The notes under the pieces were generated by a model that worked only from the letters and a program-made list of their open reading frames with translations, had not been told where the DNA came from and did not search any database. Positions 421 through 37,038 of a stretch of DNA of 42,442 bases are shown here, one piece after another. Position 1 is the stretch's first letter. Each line of letters starts with the position of its first letter. The stretch spans positions 1-42,442 of the forward strand of contig JASFSF010000001.1 of the NCBI GenBank assembly GCA_050114555.1, given 5' to 3'. This DNA is from Ignavibacteria bacterium. GTDB taxonomy: Bacteria; Bacteroidota; Ignavibacteria; Ignavibacteriales; Ignavibacteriaceae. The translations under genes were made by a program, and so were the position numbers.

Positions 421-495
421 TGGACCTAGTATCGAGAATCGAACTCGAATGACGCGGTTATAAGCCGGGCCCTCTAACCATTGAGGTATACTAGG
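421..495 (-). tRNA. tRNA-Ile, anticodon UAU (reads AUA), CCA encoded
   Basis: Hand fold: acceptor CCTAGTA/TACTAGG, D arm CCTC-AATGGTTA-GAGG, anticodon stem CCCGG/CCGCG (one C-C mismatch), loop CTTATAA, T arm TCGAG-TTCGATT-CTCGA, discriminator T plus CCA. Confidence 0.8.
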
Positions 496-5089: not shown

Positions 5090-5449
5090 TTATTTTAATA
5101 TACTAGGGAGTTGTCCTATAAATGGTTCACAAAATTTGAAATTTTGTACATTCATTGAGTTTTTAGGAGTCATATAAGCAGTATATTGATTATCTGCTTT
5201 GTATTTTAGTTTACCTAATTTTGGTATTTCTTTTTTATTATTAAAAAACCAACACCATTCATTTTTTTGTGGTTGCCAAAGAGTTAAATAATTATAATGT
5301 ATAGATAATTTTGTTATTATTCTATTTTCCCAAATGCCTTCTATACTAACCGTTGTCCCATTTTGTCCAAATTTTTCAATGCGATGTGGTTTGCAACTTT
5401 TAAAATCATCTATATCAACAATGACCCAATCGCCAATTTTAAAATTCAT
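5090..5449 (-). CDS. hypothetical protein (119 aa)
   Basis: Track ORF; AAAGGA RBS. Confidence 0.7.
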   Translation of the reverse strand: MNFKIGDWVIVDIDDFKSCKPHRIEKFGQNGTTVSIEGIWENRIITKLSIHYNYLTLWQPQKNEWCWFFNNKKEIPKLGKLKYKADNQYTAYMTPKNSMNVQNFKFCEPFIGQLPSILK

Positions 5450-5502
5450 TTATTATCCTTTTAGAATATTATTTAATATTAATATATCTTTTCTAACTTT
5501 TA

Positions 5503-5542
<40 letters not shown>

Positions 5543-5549
5543 AAAGTAA

Positions 5550-5563
5550 ACACCCGAAGGTGT
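5550..5563 (-). terminator. intrinsic terminator: ACACC-UUCG-GGUGU hairpin running into the T36 tract
   Basis: 5-bp GC-rich stem with a C(UUCG)G tetraloop on the minus strand, 7 nt after the stop of 5571..5738, followed by TTTACTTTTA plus T36. Confidence 0.7.
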
Positions 5564-5570
5564 CTACCAT

Positions 5571-5738
5571 TTAATCAATTTTACATTGTTCATTTGTATC
5601 ACGATCTACCGCAAATACACCTGACCATTCATCACCTGCGATAAAATAGACATTATATTCCTCTTTTAGACTTTCAAGTTTTCTTACGAATTCTTTTAAG
5701 TCTGTTTCTTGGACTTTTCTATTTTCTTTCTTTGACAT
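5571..5738 (-). CDS. small protein (55 aa, MSKKENRKVQETDLKEFVRKLESLKEEYNVYFIAGDEW...)
   Basis: Hand translation, 56 codons; strong AAGGAGAA RBS. Confidence 0.6.
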   Translation of the reverse strand: MSKKENRKVQETDLKEFVRKLESLKEEYNVYFIAGDEWSGVFAVDRDTNEQCKID

Positions 5739-5773: not shown

Positions 5774-5785
5774 CACCCAAAGGTG
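5774..5785 (-). terminator. short hairpin CACC-UUUG-GGUG within the conserved element GTAGACACCTTYGGGTG
   Basis: About 20 nt with one mismatch, shared with the 5550 hairpin region including flanking TCTAC. Lies between 5793..5975 and 5571..5738. Confidence 0.4.
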
Positions 5786-6725: not shown

Positions 6726-7156
6726 TATCTTTCCTTAATATTTTTAAGATAGTCGTATGCTTTTGCATATTTCTCAAGACGTTTAAAGTCTTTTTCGGTA
6801 AGACCTTTCAATCTAGTAATATCACTATTATGACAAAGATCTGCCATTTTAACTACACAAGCAATATCAAAATAAGCAATACTTCTGATGTACTCTTCAT
6901 AAGTATTACTACTATGATGAGTTAAAATCAGAATTTGCTGAATTTGTAGTTGAGTAAACCCTTCATCTAGTAACATTTTAGCTGTCCAATCAGTATCCTC
7001 AAGAAGATCATGAAGTACTGCTACGATCATATATTCTTCACCGTAGTCTTTGACTGCGTTCATTACATAAAGGCAATGAAGGATATAAGGATTACCTCCT
7101 TTATCATATTTTCCTTCAAATGCTTGTGCTGCGATACGAATAGCTTTAGATAACAT
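6725..7156 (-). CDS. HD-domain (p)ppGpp/(p)ppApp pyrophosphohydrolase-like protein (SpoT/Mesh1-type small alarmone hydrolase)
   Basis: GGNPYILHCLYV, AVLHDLLEDT and VKMADLCHN match the RelA/SpoT hydrolase (HD_4) motif order. AAGGAGA RBS. Confidence 0.7.
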   Translation of the reverse strand: MLSKAIRIAAQAFEGKYDKGGNPYILHCLYVMNAVKDYGEEYMIVAVLHDLLEDTDWTAKMLLDEGFTQLQIQQILILTHHSSNTYEEYIRSIAYFDIACVVKMADLCHNSDITRLKGLTEKDFKRLEKYAKAYDYLKNIKER

Positions 7157-7165
7157 CGATTCTCC

Positions 7166-8917
7166 TTATTTAAGAAGCCAAGGAGTGATATTCATTTCCT
7201 TGCCTTTATTAAGTTCTTTGATCTTACCTTCAAGTTTAACAAATCTAGTATAGCCTTCATCAGTAAGACCAATAGATTTGAAATAGTTGAGCAAAATAGA
7301 ACGACGATTATCATAGATTTCTTGCATCCATTCAGCAGCAAGATCTTTAGTCTTACGAGCCTCTACGACTGTTACAATAGCCGCATCATGGATAGAGATA
7401 TTCCAATCAAGAGGTTTCACAATACGATTCATACCTTGACTATCTGCATTATGAATGAGTCCTGTTACAAAATATCTCTTAAATTGACTCAAATCAGGGA
7501 CTTTATGCGTTGTAGTATGACGAATAACACTGAGTTTATCAGACTCTGTATTATATACGATATACTGCTTTGTAGTATCACCTACATGCTTATAGCGATT
7601 ACACTCAACAGTGAACTTCTCATCAGCTACATGAAGCATCATATGCTCTTTAGGAGTACAGTGGTTAATGATAATGTCTTTAAACTCATTAGCAATTGCA
7701 AATTTACCGTGAGTTTGATGGAATTTCATCAACTTAACTTGGTCAGAAGTCCAAGTAAGACCTGCTTTCTTCCAGAGTTTTGTGATAGGAGCACTAGATC
7801 CAAATACATATGGAGTTTGTGCTTTCTTGATATGAAGTTTGCTGAGACCGTCAATTTCCCACATATAGCGAGTATGATCAACATAATCACTATGGCCAAG
7901 AAGCAGGCCAATAATCGTCATATTCGATGCCGAGAAGTCTACTTCAATTGGAGTGGTAAATTGATGAGTATTATCTGCATACCAAGCATCAAGATCAGCA
8001 TACATACGCTCAAGCCAGATGTTTTCAAAGAGATCATCTACATCTTCAAGATCATCAATAGCCATTTTACGATCAGCATATGCTTGTTTCCCCATCTGGA
8101 ATTTCTTCTCGATATCTCCTTCGAATCCATAAACTAGTTCTGCAATAAACAGATAAGTATCGTATAGAATATCTTCGTTATCTACAGTAACTGGAGGAGC
8201 TACAACAAGAGCTCTAGCCATCTTATTTGCGATAGGATTAAACACTGTTTTAAGTGCTTGATAAATTGCTCTACCGCGACTATCGAGAGTAAGCTTACCA
8301 AGATTGTATTCTTGATCAGGATTTTGCATAACTTCAAGCACTACATGACGAATAATGGATTCATAGTCATATGCACCATCGACACGAAGAGAATAACCAA
8401 GTTCTTCTTCAAGTCTAGTCATTGCTTTTACTGACACTTGAATAATTTGCTTACGATATTTCTTAAGCATATCAATATCATATTTGAATTTATGAGAACC
8501 AGAGCGAGAGAAACCCATACGAACTAGACCTGTCTTTTGAATACCGGAAGGAAGCTTTACATCAGTAGCTCCTGCAAGAAAGTTAGGAGAACTAGTGATA
8601 GGTTTATAGTGCTCCATCTTAGTGTTAACAATGATTTGATCGAGTTCTTCTTGAGAATATTTTTCCAGAAGTTTTGCTTTATTGAGTTGAATATCTGCAT
8701 AATTGTAGCGAACAGAAGTCGTAATCCATTTATCTTCAGCAAGACGAAGAATCATACGATTACCTTCATTCTGAGAGCTAAACTGATCTAGCCAATAAGG
8801 TAAACTAGTTGCTCCTGCATTATTTGCAAAGCGTCTCCACAAGCTAGTAAGCATACGTTCAGCAACTTCATAGTCGCTATCCTTGTAGTTTTCGATTTCA
8901 GGCAATTCAAGTACCAT
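7166..8917 (-). CDS. T7-like single-subunit RNA polymerase, minimal form (583 aa)
   Basis: LDSRGRAIY (T/DxxGR), EVDFSASNMTIIGLL (motif A Asp), KLHIKKAQTPYVFGSS (motif B K..K..[Y/F]G), ISIHDAAIV (motif C HD). AAGGAGA RBS. Confidence 0.75.
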   Translation of the reverse strand: MVLELPEIENYKDSDYEVAERMLTSLWRRFANNAGATSLPYWLDQFSSQNEGNRMILRLAEDKWITTSVRYNYADIQLNKAKLLEKYSQEELDQIIVNTKMEHYKPITSSPNFLAGATDVKLPSGIQKTGLVRMGFSRSGSHKFKYDIDMLKKYRKQIIQVSVKAMTRLEEELGYSLRVDGAYDYESIIRHVVLEVMQNPDQEYNLGKLTLDSRGRAIYQALKTVFNPIANKMARALVVAPPVTVDNEDILYDTYLFIAELVYGFEGDIEKKFQMGKQAYADRKMAIDDLEDVDDLFENIWLERMYADLDAWYADNTHQFTTPIEVDFSASNMTIIGLLLGHSDYVDHTRYMWEIDGLSKLHIKKAQTPYVFGSSAPITKLWKKAGLTWTSDQVKLMKFHQTHGKFAIANEFKDIIINHCTPKEHMMLHVADEKFTVECNRYKHVGDTTKQYIVYNTESDKLSVIRHTTTHKVPDLSQFKRYFVTGLIHNADSQGMNRIVKPLDWNISIHDAAIVTVVEARKTKDLAAEWMQEIYDNRRSILLNYFKSIGLTDEGYTRFVKLEGKIKELNKGKEMNITPWLLK

Positions 8918-8963: not shown

Positions 8964-9602
8964 CTACCGAGAAAGCTCTCCTTTGAGGAGTTGTAGCTGT
9001 TTTGCTTTATTAAGCCGTTCAACCGCACCTGTCCAAGCTTGCTCTTCTTGACGCTGAGTAGCTTCGTAGTCTGCATAGAGGCCAAGTTTGCTTGCAATGA
9101 TATTAATTGCTACATTAAGCTTTTCTACATCTGCGGAAATGCCTTGTTCAGCACGATCACATGCTTCTTGATCAAGTACAACGATTTCACCGTCTGTATG
9201 AGTAATTGTAGTTGCTTCACGAAGATACGGAAGACTACCATAACTAGTGACTACCATATCACGAAGATCACGATCAAAGAGTTCATAAAGATCTAGATCG
9301 TCTTTAGAACTAGGGGTAAGCAGATCACGAACATCACGCTTAGCAAACTGTAGATTAGTGGCAATAGCTACCATTTTCTCTACATTATCTTCAAACTTGT
9401 AACCAGTCATGATATCACGATTATATGCGGCTGAGATTTGATCGATAATGGTATCGAGTACTTTTGCATCTTGTTCACAAAGGAAGCGTTGAGCACCTGT
9501 ATCTGTGTTAAGCATAGCCAAATCTTTTTGTTCACGTTTAGCTTGTGCAGCTGCTTTGATTGCGTTCATACGCTCTGTAATTGCTTGTGTTCTTTCTGTC
9601 AT
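8964..9602 (-). CDS. hypothetical protein (212 aa), immediately upstream of the RNAP gene
   Basis: Track ORF; AAAGGA RBS; GC visibly higher than the small accessory genes. Confidence 0.7.
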   Translation of the reverse strand: MTERTQAITERMNAIKAAAQAKREQKDLAMLNTDTGAQRFLCEQDAKVLDTIIDQISAAYNRDIMTGYKFEDNVEKMVAIATNLQFAKRDVRDLLTPSSKDDLDLYELFDRDLRDMVVTSYGSLPYLREATTITHTDGEIVVLDQEACDRAEQGISADVEKLNVAINIIASKLGLYADYEATQRQEEQAWTGAVERLNKAKQLQLLKGELSR

Positions 9603-11720: not shown

Positions 11721-12119
11721 TTATTCTCCTTTATATTCAAGCATTCTGCTTTCATCTATCTTTTTAAGCTGTTGAGCAAGCTTGTGACATTCATTAACCA
11801 TATAATCTAGATCTCTGAATTCACCTTCGCCCCAAAACCTGATTTTGTCACCAGCATGTGCAGCATCAAATCCAATAAACCATGTATCATCAGATTTAAC
11901 ATTTGGCAAAAAGTTGTTAGTATAAGTTACGCCTCCATGTACTTCTAATGATTCAATTAAATCATCATAATCAAAAGCAAGATAACAAGGATGAGTATTA
12001 GGTACTTCTACATACCCGCAATAATGAGAGTTATTAACCCAAATTACATGAGCTTTGTAACCATTTGTTTCGAAGTGAGATTCAGGCATTGCGGTTAATG
12101 CGACTTGTTTTTCTTTCAT
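11721..12119 (-). CDS. conserved phage protein with CGYV ... VHGGVTY ... GFDAAHAGD motifs (132 aa)
   Basis: Track ORF; AAGGAG RBS. The His/Asp motif string suggests a metal site; function unknown. Confidence 0.6.
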   Translation of the reverse strand: MKEKQVALTAMPESHFETNGYKAHVIWVNNSHYCGYVEVPNTHPCYLAFDYDDLIESLEVHGGVTYTNNFLPNVKSDDTWFIGFDAAHAGDKIRFWGEGEFRDLDYMVNECHKLAQQLKKIDESRMLEYKGE

Positions 12120-12335
12120 TTATTGCTCCTTATTCATAAGTTTAGCTGCTTCCATGAATTGACTTTGTTTATCCAGAATCTGTTTAAAGTCTTCTGGCAT
12201 AAAACGATGCTTTCCAAAGGTAATCGTACCATCTTCATTAAAGACTACGTTAATATCTTCACTGTAGCATCCAACTTCAGGGTAACCTTCTTCACAGTAA
12301 TAAACTGTCGGTACTGTAGTTTTGTAAGTTAACAT
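12120..12335 (-). CDS. hypothetical protein (71 aa)
   Basis: Track ORF; junction TAAGGAGATAGAAAATG identical to that of 12347..12553. Confidence 0.65.
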   Translation of the reverse strand: MLTYKTTVPTVYYCEEGYPEVGCYSEDINVVFNEDGTITFGKHRFMPEDFKQILDKQSQFMEAAKLMNKEQ

Positions 12336-12346
12336 TTTCTATCTCC

Positions 12347-12553
12347 TTATTTATCTTCCATGATATGTTCAACATAACTCATTGACGGAACTTTAATGTC
12401 GAGATATTCCGTTGTAGTATCGTACATATACAGAATATAATCATCAGTGTCTTCTTTTTTATATAAAGCACGAACTTCCCAATGATAAACATTGTGATCT
12501 TTTACTTTGTAATATGTGCTTCCATTTAGTGTAATTACATTTGGTGCTTTCAT
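12347..12553 (-). CDS. hypothetical protein (68 aa), first gene of the leftward arm
   Basis: Track ORF; TAAGGAGATAGAAAATG. Confidence 0.65.
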   Translation of the reverse strand: MKAPNVITLNGSTYYKVKDHNVYHWEVRALYKKEDTDDYILYMYDTTTEYLDIKVPSMSYVEHIMEDK

Positions 12554-12631
12554 TTTCTATCTCCTTAATTTAATTACATACAAATCAAACGAAATGTACG
12601 TTCATGTAATGCGATAACCACAATACGAAAG

Positions 12632-12644
12632 ACACCGAAGGTGT
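12632..12644 (-). terminator. hairpin ACACC-GAA-GGTGT (plus-strand reading) in the leader upstream of the first leftward gene
   Basis: 5-bp stem with a 3-nt loop, 79 nt upstream of the ATG at 12553. Could be an attenuator/terminator or a hairpin-type promoter (see findings). Confidence 0.35.
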
Positions 12645-12687
12645 AACAAGAAATAACAATTGAAAATATGGATAAAATAAGATAATC

Positions 12688-12720
12688 ACTGTCAACTGAG
12701 AGTATAACAACTGTCAACTG
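12688..12720. repeat. two direct copies of ACTGTCAACTG (12688-12698, 12710-12720), 22-bp period
   Basis: Read directly. Each copy contains TTGACA on the minus strand. Candidate operator or -35 elements. Confidence 0.6.
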
Positions 12721-12738
12721 GTAGTTTACGATGTGTAA

Positions 12739-12758
12739 CGGTATAGTTTTCTATACCG
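12739..12758. other. perfect 8-bp/4-nt hairpin CGGTATAG-TTTT-CTATACCG
   Basis: Read directly; lies in the non-coding hub. Confidence 0.6.
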
Positions 12759-12763
12759 ATAGC

Positions 12764-12781
12764 AATTCCCTGTATAGCCCT
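12764..12781 (+). promoter_or_regulatory. box R1, degenerate copy (AATTCCCT-GTATAG-CCCT) of the AAACTCCCT-N6-GGGC box
   Basis: Alignment by eye with R2 and R3. Followed by AAGGATTTTT and the AT hairpin 12815-12823/12836-12844 plus a T run. Confidence 0.3.
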
Positions 12782-12888
12782 ACCTGACGAGGTTTGTTAA
12801 GGATTTTTACTTTTTTTTGCTTTAAAGATATATAAAAAGCAAAAGCAAATTTTTAGTATATTTATTAATTAATAAGGGAATATGAATG

Positions 12889-12907
12889 AAACTCCCTAAT
12901 ATAGGGC
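12889..12907 (+). promoter_or_regulatory. box R2: AAACTCCCT-AATATA-GGGC, candidate phage-RNAP (T7-style) promoter
   Basis: Identical to R3 at 9+4 positions. Contains the dyad CCCTA-ATA-TAGGG; AGGATTTTG lies at 12915-12923. A long imperfect stem 12923-12940/12987-13006 follows. Confidence 0.4.
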
Positions 12908-13045
12908 TTTACAAAGGATTTTGCTTGCAACCACTCAACAAAATGATAGGCAAAATGTAAGATGAATGCAAAATAAGAGGTAAAAATGTTGAGTAAGTGA
13001 ACAAGCTTGTAATTTACATATGTATAGTTATTATAGTAATAGAGC

Positions 13046-13064
13046 AAACTCCCTGTACAAGGGC
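13046..13064 (+). promoter_or_regulatory. box R3: AAACTCCCT-GTACAA-GGGC, candidate phage-RNAP (T7-style) promoter
   Basis: Same box as R2. AGGATTTTG lies at 13073-13081, and the hairpin at 13115-13133 follows. Confidence 0.4.
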
Positions 13065-13114
13065 ATTTGAGCAGGATTTTGGTACTACAAACTTGGTGTC
13101 TTTTAATATAGAAA

Positions 13115-13133
13115 GACCTACGATTTGTAGGTC
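13115..13133 (+). terminator. hairpin GACCTAC-GATTT-GTAGGTC followed by CTTTAAG
   Basis: 7-bp perfect stem about 55 nt downstream of the GGGC of box R3. The T tract is weak. Confidence 0.4.
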
Positions 13134-13162
13134 CTTTAAGTAGTTCTTAAGATACTATTAAG

Positions 13163-13168
13163 TATAAT
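13163..13168 (+). promoter_or_regulatory. TATAAT -10 in the context TTAAGTATAAT, upstream of 13219..13758
   Basis: TTAAG recurs three times (13136, 13146, 13158). The 5' UTR hairpin AGAGCA..TGCTCT and the AAGGAAAGG RBS follow. Confidence 0.4.
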
Positions 13169-13218
13169 GTAAGGAATAAAGAGCAGAGGAAGTGCTCTTA
13201 AGGAAAGGTAAATGTATT

Positions 13219-13758
13219 ATGACACAACACAACTTAAACGAAGCTGAGAAAAGGAATATTTCTATAACACTTGATGCAGGTGATGAAATTAGCCTTACCA
13301 GAAATAACAGAAATAGCAATGTCCCAAATTATTTTAAGATAGGAAACGGAAATATGAGTAAAAATAAACCAGCAAGTATTAATCTGATAAAAGAACTAGT
13401 TATGCTTAGTAAACCAGCACAACAATTAATTGATGTAATTATGGATGGTATGCATTATGTAGAAGATCTATATGGAACAGACTTAAATGGTAAATTTATC
13501 GGTGGTATGACTTTTGTTGTAGAAGTTAGGAAGAAAGATCATAAATACTTACTTGATAAAGGACTTCCAGAGCTATTTGAGAAAGATTTGGTTCGTAGAG
13601 TTAGTCGAGGTAAATATATGATTAATCCTCATGCTTTACAAACTGTATTTCATAAACAGAAAGAAGTATGGGATAAAGCCAGTAATCCTAAACAGAAGGA
13701 TGAAGAAGTAGAACTCGTCGCGCCTGATAAGGTGCAGAGTTCGGATGATGAAGACTGA
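13219..13758 (+). CDS. putative winged-helix DNA-binding protein (179 aa) with an acidic C-terminal tail
   Basis: Track ORF trimmed to the ATG at 13219 (RBS AAGGAAAGG). C-terminal LVRRVSRGKYMINPHAL looks like a wing motif. The assignment is weak. Confidence 0.35.
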   Translation: MTQHNLNEAEKRNISITLDAGDEISLTRNNRNSNVPNYFKIGNGNMSKNKPASINLIKELVMLSKPAQQLIDVIMDGMHYVEDLYGTDLNGKFIGGMTFVVEVRKKDHKYLLDKGLPELFEKDLVRRVSRGKYMINPHALQTVFHKQKEVWDKASNPKQKDEEVELVAPDKVQSSDDED

Positions 13759-13920
13759 GCTATATAACAAGATAAGAGCAACACTAGATCCTATAGCAAA
13801 CTACTTAATGCTATCCAATACTAAACACACCACAACACAAGAGATACCGAAGGTAATCGATAATGGTTGGATATGATGAACACATGAAAATCTTCCCAAT
13901 TTGATTGGCCTATCTTTAAA

Positions 13921-13956
13921 AGTGTGGGAAGTGTGGAAGAGATGAGTGTGGGAGAA
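13921..13956. repeat. left cluster of GTGTGGG boxes (AGTGTGGGAA, GTGTGGAAGA, AGAGATGAGTGTGGGAGAA)
   Basis: Read directly; related copies at 15121-15156 and 15208-15229 flank the other side of the cassette. Confidence 0.7.
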
Positions 13957-13974
13957 AAAAATAAAGGGTAAGAA

Positions 13975-13988
13975 CCAGCCGAAGCTAG
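13975..13988 (-). terminator. intrinsic terminator CUAGC-UUCG-GCUGG followed by a U-rich tract
   Basis: The stem includes the TAG stop of 13985..14164 and one G-U pair. Followed by TTCTTACCCTTTATTTTTTT on the minus strand. Confidence 0.6.
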
Positions 13989-14164
13989 TCCTCAAAAAGC
14001 CATTCTTCTGTATAGTATTTGTCTGTATTATACAGTTTATTCTCGTTTGAGAATTGGGCATCTTTTTCAGCACCTTCTTTAGTTTTATGTATTGCTGAAA
14101 CTCTAGGTTTTTGTCCCTCTTCTTTGTATATTACTACAAAGACCGTTTTTTGTTTAGTTACCAT
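13985..14164 (-). CDS. small protein (59 aa, MVTKQKTVFVVIYKEEGQKPRVSAIHKTKEGAEKDAQF...)
   Basis: Hand translation, 60 codons. The start overlaps the upstream stop (ATGGTAACTAA). Confidence 0.55.
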   Translation of the reverse strand: MVTKQKTVFVVIYKEEGQKPRVSAIHKTKEGAEKDAQFSNENKLYNTDKYYTEEWLFED

Positions 14165-15254: not shown

Positions 15255-15311
15255 TTCACATGTGAAGTTTGCTTAAAGTTTTCTTAAGTATATTACATCT
15301 TACTATAGTAA
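15255..15311. promoter_or_regulatory. two perfect 12-bp palindromes (TTCACATGTGAA 15255-15266; TTACTATAGTAA 15300-15311) around the -10-like TATATT (15289-15294)
   Basis: Read directly. TTAAGTATATT resembles the TTAAGTATAAT promoter cores elsewhere on the plus strand. Confidence 0.35.
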
Positions 15312-15362
15312 TTTTATTTATGTTTAAGCCCGTATTAGTTATACTTTGTAATAAGGATGTTA

Positions 15363-20069: not shown

Positions 20070-20129
20070 TTAAGAAAATATTAAGCAATTACTAGGTATA
20101 ATATAGCATTAAATCTGTAAAGGCAATAT

Positions 20130-34074: not shown

Positions 34075-34099
34075 GATTTAAGAATAAATTAAGTATAAT
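34071..34099 (+). promoter_or_regulatory. promoter candidate TTAGGA-N17-TATAAT upstream of the scaffold/capsid genes
   Basis: The -10 lies in the box AAGTATAATAAAGTTA (34091-34106), identical to 255-270. Confidence 0.45.
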
Positions 34100-34164
34100 A
34101 AAGTTAAAATAAACTTAGTTATTACTGATAACTACAAAATCAATAATCGAAAGGAATTAGCCTA

Positions 34165-35679: not shown

Positions 35680-37014
35680 ATGGCAAACAATCAATATAAC
35701 TCTGGTACTGACGCAACAGTCGGTGCTAATACTATTGTACATTACTACGACCGTGCTGGTGTAAATGCCGCTAACCGTGTTAATGTTTATCAGCAATTTG
35801 CTGATCGTCGGTCTATGCCACAGAAATACGGTAAGACTTTTAAAATTTCTCGTTTTGAGCATATGTATGATCGTTCATTCGATGATGGTGATTTTGCTTC
35901 TAAAGGTTATTTGACTGCTCGTGATATCGCTGATATTAATACAGCACTCACTAATGCTACATTGTCTGAAGGTGCAGGAGCAACTAATCAGCGTACACTT
36001 TCTAAAGTAACATATGAAACTAATTTTTCTCGTTATGGTGAGATGATTGACTATACTGATGAGGTTGATATCTGGTCTGAAGATTATATTCAGGTTAAAT
36101 ACCGTGAAGAACTTGGTGAACTTGCTAACTCTCGTATGGAAGATTTGATTCAGCGTGATATGCTTGGTACAGCTACTGTTCTTTATTCTGGTGCAGCTGC
36201 ATCTATTGAAGATATCGGTATCGCGTCTGCTGATGACGGAAGTGATGATGTTGATTGGGTAGTTTCTTACGATCTTGCTCGTAAATCAGTTCGTAAACTT
36301 GTACGTAACCGTGCTAAGAAAAATACAATGGTTGTTACTGGTTCTACAAAAATTGGTACAACTCCTGTAGCAAAATCCTACTACGCAATTATCGGGGCTG
36401 ATGTTAAGTCTGATCTTGAAACACTTACTCGTGGTACTGATTATGAGAAAGAATATGTATATATTCCGGTCCATAAATATGCTGGTGCTGCAACTATGGC
36501 AGAAGGTGAAGTAGGTTCTATGCATGAAATTCGCTTTATTGAAGCTGAGTCCGCTGCTGTTTACCGTGGTCAGGGTGCTGCTGTTCAAGATGACTATGTA
36601 GGTAACCTTGCTACAACTACTGTAACTAACGGTATTAAAGTCGTTACTGGTGCTGCTGCAAATAACGTTATTCTTGTAAATGGTGTATCTTTCACTGTAG
36701 CTGAAGGTGAAACTCTTAATGTTGCTGCTGATGCTACTCTTGATGTAACTGGTGGTGGTGATCTTTCAGTTGGTGCTGCTACTGATGGTGATCGTTATGA
36801 TGTATTCCCGATTCTTTTCCCGACTGAAGGTGCTTTCGCAACTGTTGGTCTTAAAGGTCTTGAAAAAATCAAGTTTAACGCTAAATCTCCTGCACAAGTT
36901 GAAAATGCTAACCCGTATGGTACTACTGGCTTCTTCAGCTACAACTTCTTCTATGCAGGTATTATCCTTAAAGAAGAAGCACTTCTCAAAACGCTTGTTG
37001 CTGCACGCAACTAA
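35680..37014 (+). CDS. major capsid protein (HK97-fold, N4 gp56-like)
   Basis: 444 aa, highest-quality codon composition. N-terminal YQQFADRRSMPQKYGKTFKISRF resembles the N4-family capsid signature. Follows the scaffold gene. Confidence 0.75.
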   Translation: MANNQYNSGTDATVGANTIVHYYDRAGVNAANRVNVYQQFADRRSMPQKYGKTFKISRFEHMYDRSFDDGDFASKGYLTARDIADINTALTNATLSEGAGATNQRTLSKVTYETNFSRYGEMIDYTDEVDIWSEDYIQVKYREELGELANSRMEDLIQRDMLGTATVLYSGAAASIEDIGIASADDGSDDVDWVVSYDLARKSVRKLVRNRAKKNTMVVTGSTKIGTTPVAKSYYAIIGADVKSDLETLTRGTDYEKEYVYIPVHKYAGAATMAEGEVGSMHEIRFIEAESAAVYRGQGAAVQDDYVGNLATTTVTNGIKVVTGAAANNVILVNGVSFTVAEGETLNVAADATLDVTGGGDLSVGAATDGDRYDVFPILFPTEGAFATVGLKGLEKIKFNAKSPAQVENANPYGTTGFFSYNFFYAGIILKEEALLKTLVAARN

Positions 37015-37019
37015 TCTCT

Positions 37020-37038
37020 GAGGGAGTTAAGCTCCCTC
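37020..37038 (+). terminator. perfect 7-bp hairpin GAGGGAG-TTAAG-CTCCCTC 6 nt after the capsid stop (no U tract)
   Basis: Read directly. Both arms carry the CTCCCT core of the R boxes. Confidence 0.5.

Follow-up and report, generated by a model that had tools for sequence, protein, structure and literature searches.

At lambda-type OR and OL, divergent early operators are bound by repressor cooperatively or with looping. The T7 promoter reads TATA-GGGAGA from position -4 to +6. Among replication origins, the analogues of the locus described here are the repL/oriL lytic replicon of phage P1 and the primary origin of T7, in which tandem promoters accompany an AT-rich segment. Bidirectional promoters that arise from symmetric -10 elements have been documented (Warman et al. 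2021), with divergent starts that lie 7-25 bp apart and a modal spacing of 18 bp according to the summary of that work in PMC10268837. N4 RNAPII uses a minimal AT-rich promoter from -7 to +2 and needs cofactors (PMC4496689), and LUZ7 RNAPII has few middle promoters, which are GC hairpins with a stem of at least 6 bp and a loop of 3-4 nt about 15 bp upstream of a G start (PMC9163698). How minimal polymerases of the N4 RNAPII type find their promoters is unsettled, with an AT-rich -7 to +2 segment plus unknown factors in N4 set against hairpins in LUZ7.

Here we describe a region within the window, by which we mean the whole 42,442-nucleotide stretch of DNA that was analysed. A 665-bp gap in the ORF map, between a leftward early arm that includes an RNA polymerase (RNAP) gene and a rightward winged-helix (wHTH) gene, is best read as the central control region of an uncultured phage, and its layout recurs in relatives L052/L053, L001, L063, L066 and L070. 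The phage belongs to an uncultured group with an unannotated minimal T7-like RNAP. It looks lytic and encodes an RNAP in a compact 42-kb genome, and the contig is probably complete because the ORF running off its right end closes 16 codons into the left end. The comparison set comprised 85 loci, one of which (L051) is an identical copy of the same phage while the remaining 84 are related; the anatomy of the conserved part was drawn from more than 20 related contigs. A nucleotide search of a phage collection with positions 12000-14000 as query, and scans for close relatives with single flanking proteins, gave no match. The features are as follows.

7166..8917, minus strand: 583-aa minimal single-subunit (T7/N4 RNAPII-like) RNA polymerase (model, structure search and profile)
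12554..13218, no strand: divergent non-coding control region (ORF map, matching layout in relatives)
12632..12644, minus strand: ACACC-UUCG-GGUGU hairpin, then CUUUCGUAUU (terminator scan)
12682..12725, no strand: two 22-bp direct repeats, at 12682 and 12704, with ACTGTCAACTG in each
12739..12781, plus strand: unit 1, degenerate, with hairpin CGGTATAG-TTTT-CTATACCG, ATAG and box R1 (12764-12781)
12799..12854, plus strand: AAGGATTTT block of unit 1, AT-only hairpin (12815-12823/12836-12844) and TTTTT (12850-12854)
12856..12923, plus strand: unit 2, with GTATATTTATTA, AT palindrome TTATTAATTAATAA (12862-12875), GGGAA, box R2, TTTACA and AGGATTTTG (12915-12923)
13022..13045, no strand: core of unit 3, back-to-back -10-like elements orthologous to the conserved palindrome of relatives
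13046..13081, plus strand: box R3 (dyad CCCT-GTACA-AGGG, 13051-13063), TTGAGC and AGGATTTTG (13073-13081)
13082..13133, no strand: pair of operator-type dyads with 33-bp spacing, GACCTACGATTTGTAGGTC (13115-13133) and a degenerate partner (13082-13100)
13137..13168, plus strand: predicted proximal promoter of the wHTH gene, TAAG every 11 nt (13137, 13148, 13159), then TATAAT (13163-13168)
13219..13758, plus strand: 179-aa protein (P0108), predicted to bind DNA, with the RepL-like winged-helix motif KDLVRRVKRGxYMINP

An earlier reading of the window, made from the sequence alone, had seen no credible ORF in this region, and indeed we found no conserved one: only a 24-aa ATG ORF that spans R2 and a 60-aa TTG ORF on the minus strand are present, neither of them conserved. 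A small-ORF function, with an SD-like GGGAA or AGGA ahead of a start codon, was rejected because the 24-aa ORF occurs in unit 2 only and nothing is conserved. The sequence-only reading was also right about the extremely AT-rich stretch (17% GC at 12820-12889), the 8-bp hairpin at 12739-12758, and a twofold repeat that it had assigned to a possible origin or operator, which is present as the 22-bp direct repeats. Within these repeats ACTGTCAACTG reads TTGACA on the minus strand at a spacing of 22 bp; they may be iterons, operators or a portion of a leftward promoter (TGTTATACT, minus strand). L055 and L084 have a single AAACTGTCTCAACTG. The hairpin at 12632..12644 precedes the first leftward gene and has the look of a terminator or attenuator; two sister copies (5551-5562 and 5774-5785) stand behind left-arm genes.

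Boxes R2 (12889-12907, AAACTCCCTAATATAGGGC) and R3 (13046-13064, AAACTCCCTGTACAAGGGC) are both present exactly, with identical half-sites and different spacers, and the second block they had been said to share, AGGATTTTG, was located at 12915 and 13073. The pattern AAACTCCCT-N5-AGGGC matches twice in the window against 0.01 expected from shuffles. R1 was correctly taken for a degenerate copy, and AAGGATTTT follows it at 12799. The repeated unit extends beyond the box first noticed and begins about 25-35 bp upstream, at GTATA(T/G)TTATTA (12856, 13022). R2 and R1 are partial tandem copies, and the boxes are spaced by 126 bp and 157 bp, or 12 and 15 helical turns. R2 can form a 5-bp stem (CCCTA/TAGGG) with a 3-nt loop and the R3 dyad a 4-bp stem with a 5-nt loop, whereas R1 has no stem and cannot pair. 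Unit 1 no longer has a -10-like hexamer (2/6), and its R dyad is disrupted; in unit 2 the hexamer at the site homologous to the -10 of relatives also scores 2/6. A search of the genome and of related phages, which had been proposed as a check, confined the box to this region: ACTCCCT-N5-AGGG is absent from the 84 related loci, the sole exception among the 85 being L051, and L004 has one TCCCT-N5-AGGGG dyad. Partial copies of AACTCCC elsewhere in the window, which had also been listed, are at background level (six, R2 and R3 included, against 2.3 expected; with two mismatches allowed seven against 3.7, four of the seven being R2 and R3 on both strands).

R3 lies inside a cassette that occurs once per relative in more than 20 contigs, upstream of a winged-helix, weakly RepL-like gene. 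Its order is two back-to-back -10 hexamers, a GC dyad (the R box), a TTGAnn/AGGnATTTT block, operator dyads, a second TATAAT promoter and the gene. In the window, the core of unit 3 carries TATAAT on the minus strand (13035-13030) and TATAGT (13032-13037) or AGTAAT (13035-13040) on the plus strand. The gene-ward hexamer ahead of A-GG(G/A)A is (T/A)AnAAT in 21/21 relatives, with A2, A4, A5 and T6 invariant, and the opposite strand has TATAAT, TAGAAT, AATAAT or a similar hexamer in 17 of 19; the A at position 2 and T at position 6 that mark bidirectional promoters are conserved on both strands. The hexamers share a central TA only or stand back to back, which places the predicted divergent starts about 22-23 bp or more apart. 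The A-GG(G/A)A that follows is invariant and recalls a GGGA discriminator. The AGGnATTTT box lies at +28-32 or +39-41 from the conserved ATA-G, a difference of one helical turn. In several lineages (L052, L058, L085: TATT-ATAG-AATA) the palindrome is broken yet both hexamers are kept, which favours -10 elements over a hairpin. A count of pairs on the palindrome was relied on for its flanks only, since the inner pairs are biased by the construction of the alignment.

The motif stays constant while the RNAP and wHTH proteins of the relatives fall to 27-58% and 23-49% identity with those of the window, and this fits a universal host sigma factor better than a co-diverging phage enzyme. The stem of the dyad, by contrast, varies by lineage with complementarity kept (CCCGAT/ATCGGG, CCTT/AAGG, TGGT/ACCA), a pattern also compatible with a hairpin folded in RNA or in single-stranded DNA; about half of the relatives lack the R-box hairpin or have a different one. 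Two further ideas were rejected. The TTGAnn after the box is not the -35 of another promoter, as no lineage has a -10 at 16-18 bp, and a rolling-circle nick site (dso) is contradicted by the loop or centre of the palindrome, which is its least conserved part.

At the position matching 13082..13133 every relative has two lineage-specific dyads, 33-34 bp apart, which abut the proximal promoter. The core TACGATT(C/T)GTA is common to the dyads of the window, L001, L067, L077 and L083, and other lineages have direct repeats of their own at this position, such as GCTACTATCAGAG three times in L052. The dyads of the window are probably binding sites of the 179-aa protein. The TTAAG(T)-N10-TATAAT motif stands upstream of the homologous gene in relatives and recurs in the window at 15325, 20082 and 34079. 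The 179-aa protein belongs to an unannotated family of 676 cluster representatives. RepL (PF05732) hits, in register, were obtained for 7/14 and 2/10 family members at 13-16 bits against a cut-off of 20.3, so that none reaches the family threshold, and P0108 itself gave no hit. Alignment with a RepL-domain protein by hhalign reached 96.8% over 51 columns, limited to the winged-helix part, which ordinary regulators also have. Its AF2 model (pLDDT 67) is too weak for a fold assignment, and Foldseek returned CooA, CRP and MarR as non-significant wHTH matches (E at least 0.1). A profile search against PDB sequences gave no match, an exact look-up returned only a 1.1-kb contig identical to the window, and no wHTH gene of this family was found in cultured phages.

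The 583-aa ORF is a genuine minimal T7-like RNA polymerase, as had been supposed: the AF2 model has a pLDDT of 93, the top Foldseek hits are POLRMT and T7 RNAP (E about 1e-10), and in a profile match to N4 RNAPII motifs A, B and C line up. An exact-sequence look-up of this protein gave no record. A conserved 212-aa protein is encoded beside it (8964-9602). Hairpin promoters of the N4/LUZ7 type have a stem of 5-7 bp or more and work with a cofactor that binds single-stranded DNA (gp2, Drc or host SSB) and with supercoiling; the ORFs that were compared with Pfam and PHROGs included no recognisable SSB cofactor of the gp2/Drc type. As the polymerase gene is itself encoded in the leftward arm, at a distance of 3.6 kb, the control region requires host promoters. 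The wHTH and RNAP genes are 1-6 kb apart in 13 loci.

Based on these results, our best explanation, which we hold tentatively and at somewhat less than an even chance, is a divergent early promoter and operator hub for host RNAP that is possibly also a replication origin. The region would be a divergent early control region read mainly by host RNA polymerase, with unit 3 and the part downstream of it as the conserved core. Two opposed sigma70-type -10 hexamers on one AT-rich palindrome would form a bidirectional promoter, reading rightward into the wHTH gene and leftward into the early arm with the phage RNAP gene. The short GC dyad of the R box would come next, then TTGAnn/AGGnATTTT at a constant spacing of about 30 or 40 bp that is phased with the helix, a pair of operators bound by the wHTH protein, the second TATAAT promoter and the wHTH gene. 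R3 occupies approximately +5 to +20 of the predicted rightward start and -28 to -40 of the predicted leftward start; this position suggests a regulatory dyad that falls within the initial 20 nt of the rightward transcript and covers the leftward promoter's -35 zone, although a role as a leader hairpin may also be considered. R2 and R1 would be partial tandem duplicates in which the dyad and the AGGATTTTG block survive but the -10 hexamers do not. Together the three boxes may work on the DNA itself, as operator-like sites through which a regulator from phage or host adjusts the divergent early promoters, perhaps by binding cooperatively or by looping. The anatomy, its conservation, the -10-like hexamers and the phasing were observed directly, whereas promoter activity, a box-binding protein and any looping are what we infer; the module may also double as the origin of a phage without recognisable replication enzymes.

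An independent sigma70 consensus scan speaks for this hub, since it flagged both strands and chose exactly the two back-to-back sites (minus strand TGTACA-18-TATAAT, 10/12; plus strand TTGTAA-16-TATTAT, 9/12). The box, unique to the region, absent from relatives and present with identical half-sites at spacings of 126 and 157 bp, points the same way. Against it, the promoter calls are consensus-based, and the region has fewer sigma70-like sites than shuffles (4 against 6.6). No conserved -35 accompanies the hexamers in relatives, the window having 4/6 hexamers at 16 and 18 bp, and the start spacing is not the commonest 18 bp. A search of the genes adjoining the region gave no conserved candidate regulator for CCCT-N5-AGGG, the left-flank genes not being conserved in relatives, and the varying stem with kept complementarity also tells against the hub. 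The gene-ward hexamer of the window is itself weak (AGTAAT 4/6 or TATAGT 5/6), and with 2/6 in units 1 and 2 a claim of three promoters cannot be supported. The sequence-only reading had offered an alternative, a hub of origin or operator type beside a winged-helix-like gene, and this comes close to what the comparative data show.

It is unlikely, in our judgement, that the units are structure-dependent promoters of the N4 and LUZ7 kind, hairpin or minimal AT-rich, which serve the minimal RNAP encoded by this phage. In such a scheme the 583-aa polymerase would be recruited by the AT palindrome ending in ATA-GG(G/A)A or else by the R-box GC hairpin, transcription in the hairpin case beginning at a G within AGGATTTTG, some 10-15 nt further on. 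A cofactor that binds DNA might help, the wHTH protein being one candidate, and three tandem promoters would drive the wHTH gene. The polymerase is real and N4 RNAPII-like, its gene is linked to the wHTH gene, R2 has a 5-bp stem and 3-nt loop, and ATA-GGGA resembles the TATA-GGGAGA of T7. No T7-style promoter motif emerged from all intergenic DNA by 9-mer enrichment or 18-mer near-repeats, which yielded RBS-like repeats, UUCG-type terminator hairpins and a AAGTATAAT TATAAT-type promoter class; this absence of a multi-copy promoter fits short or structural ones. The few GC hairpins of LUZ7 RNAPII (PMC9163698) and the cofactor-requiring AT-rich minimal promoter of N4 RNAPII (PMC4496689) offer further likeness. 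However, there is one locus per genome, and a weight matrix built from the palindromes of relatives found no extra copy in the window above shuffle level, its top matches being Shine-Dalgarno-like. Neither L004 nor L005, the nearest two of the examined RNAP loci without a wHTH gene, has the strict palindrome motif. Nothing would lead one to expect a phage promoter to match the sigma70 -10 on both strands, the R-box hairpin is inconstant among relatives and cannot form in R1, and the target gene already has a TATAAT promoter.

We likewise regard as improbable a region that is primarily a replication origin, with the RepL-like protein as initiator at the dyads or iterons. The AT-rich palindromes and the 17%-GC stretch would then melt or extrude, the R units would be repeated origin elements, and transcription from adjacent promoters would activate the origin. 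Repeated sites and an AT-rich segment do stand beside the gene, as in RepL-type origins: paired dyads, direct repeats and the AT-rich block adjoin it, and other lineages have their own direct repeats. The RepL hits recur in register and the hhalign match agrees with them; the contig is probably complete, and no DNA polymerase, helicase or primase was recognised among the window ORFs scanned. The cumulative GC-skew minimum of the window falls in this region, and in L025 a ParB-like gene comes after the cis-cassette. On the other side, the RepL scores stay below the cut-off and concern the winged-helix part only, the Foldseek matches are to CooA, CRP and MarR, and the skew minimum coincides with the change of gene orientation, which confounds it. 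The region has no DnaA-box cluster, and the dyads, like operators for autoregulation, adjoin the promoter of the gene itself.

A combination of these ideas is quite doubtful. The cassette (AT palindrome ending in ATA-GGRA, GC hairpin and phased AGGnATTTT) would be the loading site or promoter of an undescribed family of T7-like RNAPs of about 580 aa, working with the linked RepL-like winged-helix protein, and the tandem array would couple phage-RNAP transcription to the start of replication. If so, the winged-helix protein would be a dsDNA-binding "factor X" of the sort that has been postulated but never identified for N4 RNAPII.

The main proposal of the sequence-only reading, R1-R3 as T7-type promoters with starts at GGGC (12904, 13061) that make three ncRNAs of 70-115 nt or form a promoter decoy array, is very improbable: it draws on the T7-like RNAP, AATATA-GGGC in R2, the hairpin and T5 after R1 and the blocks conserved between R2 and R3, but the box is found neither elsewhere in the genome nor in any relative, its only two exact copies lying in this region; promoters of the T7 type would be several copies of a conserved element of about 18-23 bp that precede gene clusters. 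In R3 the sequence GTACAA takes the place of the AT block, prone to melting, that one would expect, the variable hexamer being AT-rich in R2 only, and the conserved promoter-like part lies upstream of the box and resembles sigma70 -10 hexamers on both strands. Each box had been given its own hairpin. The AT hairpin followed by TTTTT and the GACCTAC/GTAGGTC pair are present, but two of the three folds are not significant: z against shuffles was -0.54 after R1, +0.26 after R2 and -2.77 after R3, and the last arises because operator-like dyads produce it. GACCTAC/GTAGGTC (13115-13133) is homologous to the operator dyads of relatives, where its sequence varies. The RNAs predicted downstream of R1 and R2 show no more structure than shuffled sequences and match no Rfam family at gathering thresholds or even at E of 5 or less.

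If the host-read hub holds, this is an ordinary though neatly organised phage early control region, of value as an annotated example: it offers a bidirectional -10 palindrome, a phased downstream box, lineage-specific operators and an unannotated winged-helix family. If instead phage-RNAP promoters are present, a single candidate site array, a linked DNA-binding protein and the 212-aa neighbour make a tractable in vitro system.

Among described systems, symmetric -10 bidirectional promoters share with this locus the opposed TAnnnT hexamers, a short AT-rich pseudo-palindrome and a divergent gene junction; here the predicted starts are about 22-23 bp or more apart, A-GG(G/A)A is invariant on the gene side, and activity is predicted. 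Similarly, lambda-type OR/OL regions have repeated dyads between divergent early promoters at whole-helical-turn spacing and a nearby gene for a small DNA-binding protein with its own paired operators (predicted here). In contrast to lambda, this RNAP-encoding phage looks lytic, we identified no homologue of a repressor or of Cro, and the half-sites of the R dyads are only 4-5 bp. The hairpin promoters of N4 virion RNAP and LUZ7 RNAPII resemble it in the N4 RNAPII-like polymerase that the phage encodes, in the small stem and loop of R2, in G residues 10-15 nt downstream and in few tandem sites near the start of a transcription unit; they differ in that the R stems are shorter, variable or missing in relatives and unpaired in R1, no gp2/Drc SSB-type cofactor was recognised among the ORFs scanned, and the neighbouring conserved element resembles a host -10. 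With T7/T3/SP6 promoters the locus has in common a cognate type of RNAP, ATA then GGGA in the conserved palindrome and AATATAGGG in R2, but it lacks a conserved genome-wide repeat of about 20 bp, its box is not conserved in relatives and its -4 to -1 block is variable. Finally, RepL replicons (PF05732; P1 repL/oriL), to which the similarity of the protein is sub-threshold, likewise bring together a small winged-helix protein, one or more promoters, dyads or repeats and an AT-rich segment, and the T7 primary origin, like this region, sets tandem promoter-like units beside AT-rich DNA.

Judged from its sequence, the 665-bp non-coding control region at the strand switch (12554-13218) may be a divergent early promoter/operator hub organised round a conserved cassette, and it perhaps serves as an origin too; we give this description slightly less than an even chance. 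The boxes reported in it, R1 (12764-12781), R2 (12889-12907) and R3 (13046-13064), would be best described as the hub's repeated regulatory dyads. The contig is phage-like (GC 32%), and an ORF of 491 codons or more, running from 40970 to the right end (42442), would close 16 codons into the left end (1-51); the window is therefore probably a complete, circularly assembled genome. A nucleotide search with 12000-14000 found no record with DNA-level likeness to the window in the phage collection.

12553 down to 524, leftward: left arm on the ORF map, with small genes and the 583-aa ORF at 7166-8917
From 13219, rightward: right arm, with terminase, portal, major head and tail genes
302-389 and 421-495, minus strand: tRNA Leu(UAA) and tRNA Ile(UAU), next after the ORF closing at the left end

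The sequence-only reading had taken R1-R3 for T7-promoter-like boxes, each followed by its own hairpin, that would fit three short non-coding RNAs or a promoter/decoy array. R2 and R3 are exactly as it described (two copies of AAACTCCCT-N5-AGGGC, where shuffles give 0.01), both are followed by the second block AGGATTTTG, R1 is a degenerate copy, and the AT-rich stretch is real (17% GC at 12820-12889). These features are genuine and non-random; the T7-promoter and non-coding RNA interpretation is unsupported. The listed repeats and hairpins are all present. Downstream of R1 and R2, folding is no stronger than in shuffled sequence (z -0.54 and +0.26), and the region matched no Rfam family, even at E <= 5. 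Supposed partial copies of AACTCCC outside the region occur at background frequency. One of these, the strong hairpin GAGGGAG-N-CTCCCTC at 37017-37038, resembles the boxes by coincidence; it comes straight after the gene for the major head protein (35680-37014), where a T7 Tphi-like terminator would stand.

Relatives were gathered as about 35 loci through homologues of the 179-aa protein, encoded by the winged-helix (wHTH) gene at 13219..13758 (+), and 50 more through homologues of the phage RNAP. Where the upstream DNA is long enough, almost all loci carry the same cassette ahead of the homologous wHTH gene; its distance to the start codon is 120-195 bp and its orientation never changes.

Element 1: AT-rich palindrome ending ...AATA, then GG(G/A)A
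Element 2: spacer, often with a short GC dyad, e.g. GCCCTATATTCAGGGA, CCCTAAAAATAGGG, CCCGATAGCATCGGG or CCTT-N8-AAGG
Element 3: TTGAnn hexamer and AGGnATTTT-type T-run
Element 4: lineage-specific dyad, present twice, 33-34 bp apart
Element 5: TTAAG(T)-N10-TATAAT promoter-like element, then RBS, then gene

The T-run starts at +28-32 or at +39-41, a difference of one helical turn. The window's orthologue of the cassette is unit 3, the larger repeat carrying R3 (13022-13081), together with 13082-13168; units 2 and 1 are additional partial copies with the first three elements only. The repeated unit begins upstream of the boxes, with GTATA(T/G)TTATTA at 12856 and 13022, and the hairpin ascribed to R3, GACCTACGATTTGTAGGTC, has a core, TACGATT(C/T)GTA, common to the dyads of loci L001, L067, L077 and L083. 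The cassette lies at a divergent junction in the window, L052, L063, L066, L070 and L001, follows co-directional genes in L058, and is kept before a ParB-like gene in L025. There, a 240-aa ParB-like gene stands in place of the wHTH gene, and 7060-7200 (minus strand), after the cassette, holds five tandem AGTAAAT copies, inverted TTTAGTAAACAGTTTACTAAA and a perfect TTGACA-17-TATAAT promoter ahead of it.

One reading of the palindrome is a hairpin, its centre differing in sequence and in length (0-9 nt) with self-complementarity often kept; its hexamers show a sharper regularity. The six bases before A-GG read (T/A)AnAAT in 21/21 relatives, A2, A4, A5 and T6 being invariant, and the mirror hexamer on the opposite strand is TATAAT, TAGAAT, AATAAT or similar in 17/19. 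Where a lineage has a broken palindrome (TATT-ATAG-AATA), one strand still reads TAGAAT and the other TATAAT. Since both hexamers fit the sigma70-family -10 consensus, including its most critical positions, the best reading of the palindrome is a pair of opposed -10 elements, an architecture documented for bacterial bidirectional promoters (PMC10268837). An independent sigma70 consensus scan of the window flagged exactly this pair (minus strand, TGTACA-18-TATAAT; plus strand, TTGTAA-16-TATTAT). Within the window the hexamers are kept in unit 3 only, where the match is 6/6 (minus strand) and 4-5/6 (plus strand); in units 2 and 1 it falls to 2/6. Recognition by a host sigma factor is proposed to account for the constancy of the motif among phages with proteins only 23-58% identical to those of the window, and the opposed pair would supply the host promoter required by the leftward arm, RNAP gene included.

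R2 and R3 have exactly the same half-sites, CTCCCT and AGGGC, and the same AGGATTTTG block, and differ in the intervening bases, which indicates selection on the blocks rather than recent duplication. The dyad centres lie 126 and 157 bp apart, or 12.0 and 15.0 helical turns, and R3 falls at about +5 to +20 from the inferred rightward start and -28 to -40 from the leftward one. Block identity, helical spacing and the phased AGGnATTTT box point to a protein-binding architecture at the DNA level, and lead us to favour operator-like sites that would act jointly on the divergent promoters. The main alternative role, a folded leader hairpin, draws on stems that vary between lineages with complementarity preserved, and on flanking A- and T-tracts like those of weak bidirectional terminators. 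The long divergent region of L004, a relative that has no wHTH gene nearby, also contains an R-like dyad, TTCCCT-TATAT-AGGGGA-TTTAT; at 5440-5620 this region of the 111-kb relative has a long purine-only tract on one strand, (GGA)n then GGGAGAGG and similar.

The premise that the window encodes a T7-like RNAP is borne out. The 583-aa protein has no Pfam match, but in a profile built from 40 homologues motifs A, B and C line up with N4 RNAPII (6dt7_B, E 0.015), and its confident AlphaFold model (pLDDT 93) best matches human and yeast mitochondrial RNAP and T7 RNAP (E ~1e-10; query-normalised TM-score, TMq, 0.5-0.6). Its only cultured relatives are in Alteromonas AD45 phages (33% identity). Several relatives (L041, L044, L047, L048 and AD45-P1 to P4) have the protein of this minimal family (~580 aa, without a Pfam domain) split between two or three ORFs, a GIY-YIG nuclease gene being annotated among the features beneath the three-piece match in AD45-P1, and in PHROGs the family is divided among three 'unknown function' entries. 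Directly upstream of the RNAP gene, a 212-aa gene (8964-9602, minus strand) keeps its position in L001, L003, L004 and L005 (32-71% identity); its product, whose sole family match is a weak PHROG of unknown function, may act as cofactor or second subunit of the polymerase, on the analogy of N4 gp15/gp16.

That the region is instead a promoter for this polymerase we consider unlikely. LUZ7 RNAPII does use a few GC-hairpin promoters with G starts (PMC9163698), N4 RNAPII works with a minimal AT-rich site plus cofactors (PMC4496689), and this genome carries no T7-style motif in multiple copies. However, there is a single locus per genome, the strict palindrome motif is missing from the closest wHTH-less RNAP loci examined, the hexamers resemble host -10 elements on both strands, and hairpin conservation is poor.

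The promoter hub is compatible with a possible origin, a reading kept because no replication enzyme was recognised among the contig ORFs scanned. The 179-aa protein is a member of a large family that lacks annotation (676 cluster representatives), and in 13 loci the gene of this family stands 1-6 kb from that of the RNAP. Sub-threshold, co-linear RepL (PF05732) matches in 7/14 family members and 2/10 distant ones (13-16 bits against a 20.3 cut-off), and an hhalign value of 96.8% against a RepL-domain protein across the KDLVRR...YMINP motif, mark it as a winged-helix DNA-binding protein, possibly an initiator; its AF2 model is weak (pLDDT 67), with non-significant Foldseek matches to CooA, CRP and MarR. 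A second paralogue (...GKYMVNP...) at L063 142-603, ~0.9 kb upstream of the cassette-linked copy, indicates two family members in some genomes. In its left half, the corresponding intergenic region carries each lineage's own short direct repeats, GCTACTATCAGAG x3 at ~495-600 in L052, GTTACCG x4 at 1630-1690 in L055 and ATGGGGTCTT x2 at 8440-8520 in L001, which look like lineage-specific protein-binding sites or iterons.

Elsewhere in the window, two further classes of element recur.

5551-5562, 5774-5785 and 12633-12643, minus strand: near-identical hairpins (G)ACACC-UUYG-GGUGU with U-rich tails, behind left-arm genes
~10860 and ~9650: hairpin variants GGCC-UUCG-GGCC and CCACU-UUCG-AGUGG
13137-13168, 15285-15345, 20082-20103 and 34079-34100, plus strand: promoter-like TTAAG(T)-N10-TATAAT
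255, 25346 and 26623, plus strand: AAGTATAAT, of the same promoter-like class

The hairpins are probably intrinsic terminators with UUCG tetraloops, and one of this type sits in the first leftward gene's leader. Directly after that at 5551-5562, and before the next leftward gene, lie ~34 uninterrupted A (5507-5540; T on the coding minus strand), unusually long for a phage genome. The promoter-like copies, all on the plus strand before right-arm (structural) operons, form a class conserved in relatives, with TAAG often repeated every 11 nt. Their 10-bp spacing differs from that of sigma70 -35/-10 elements, and we liken the class to activator-box promoters, such as the MotA-dependent middle promoters of T4.
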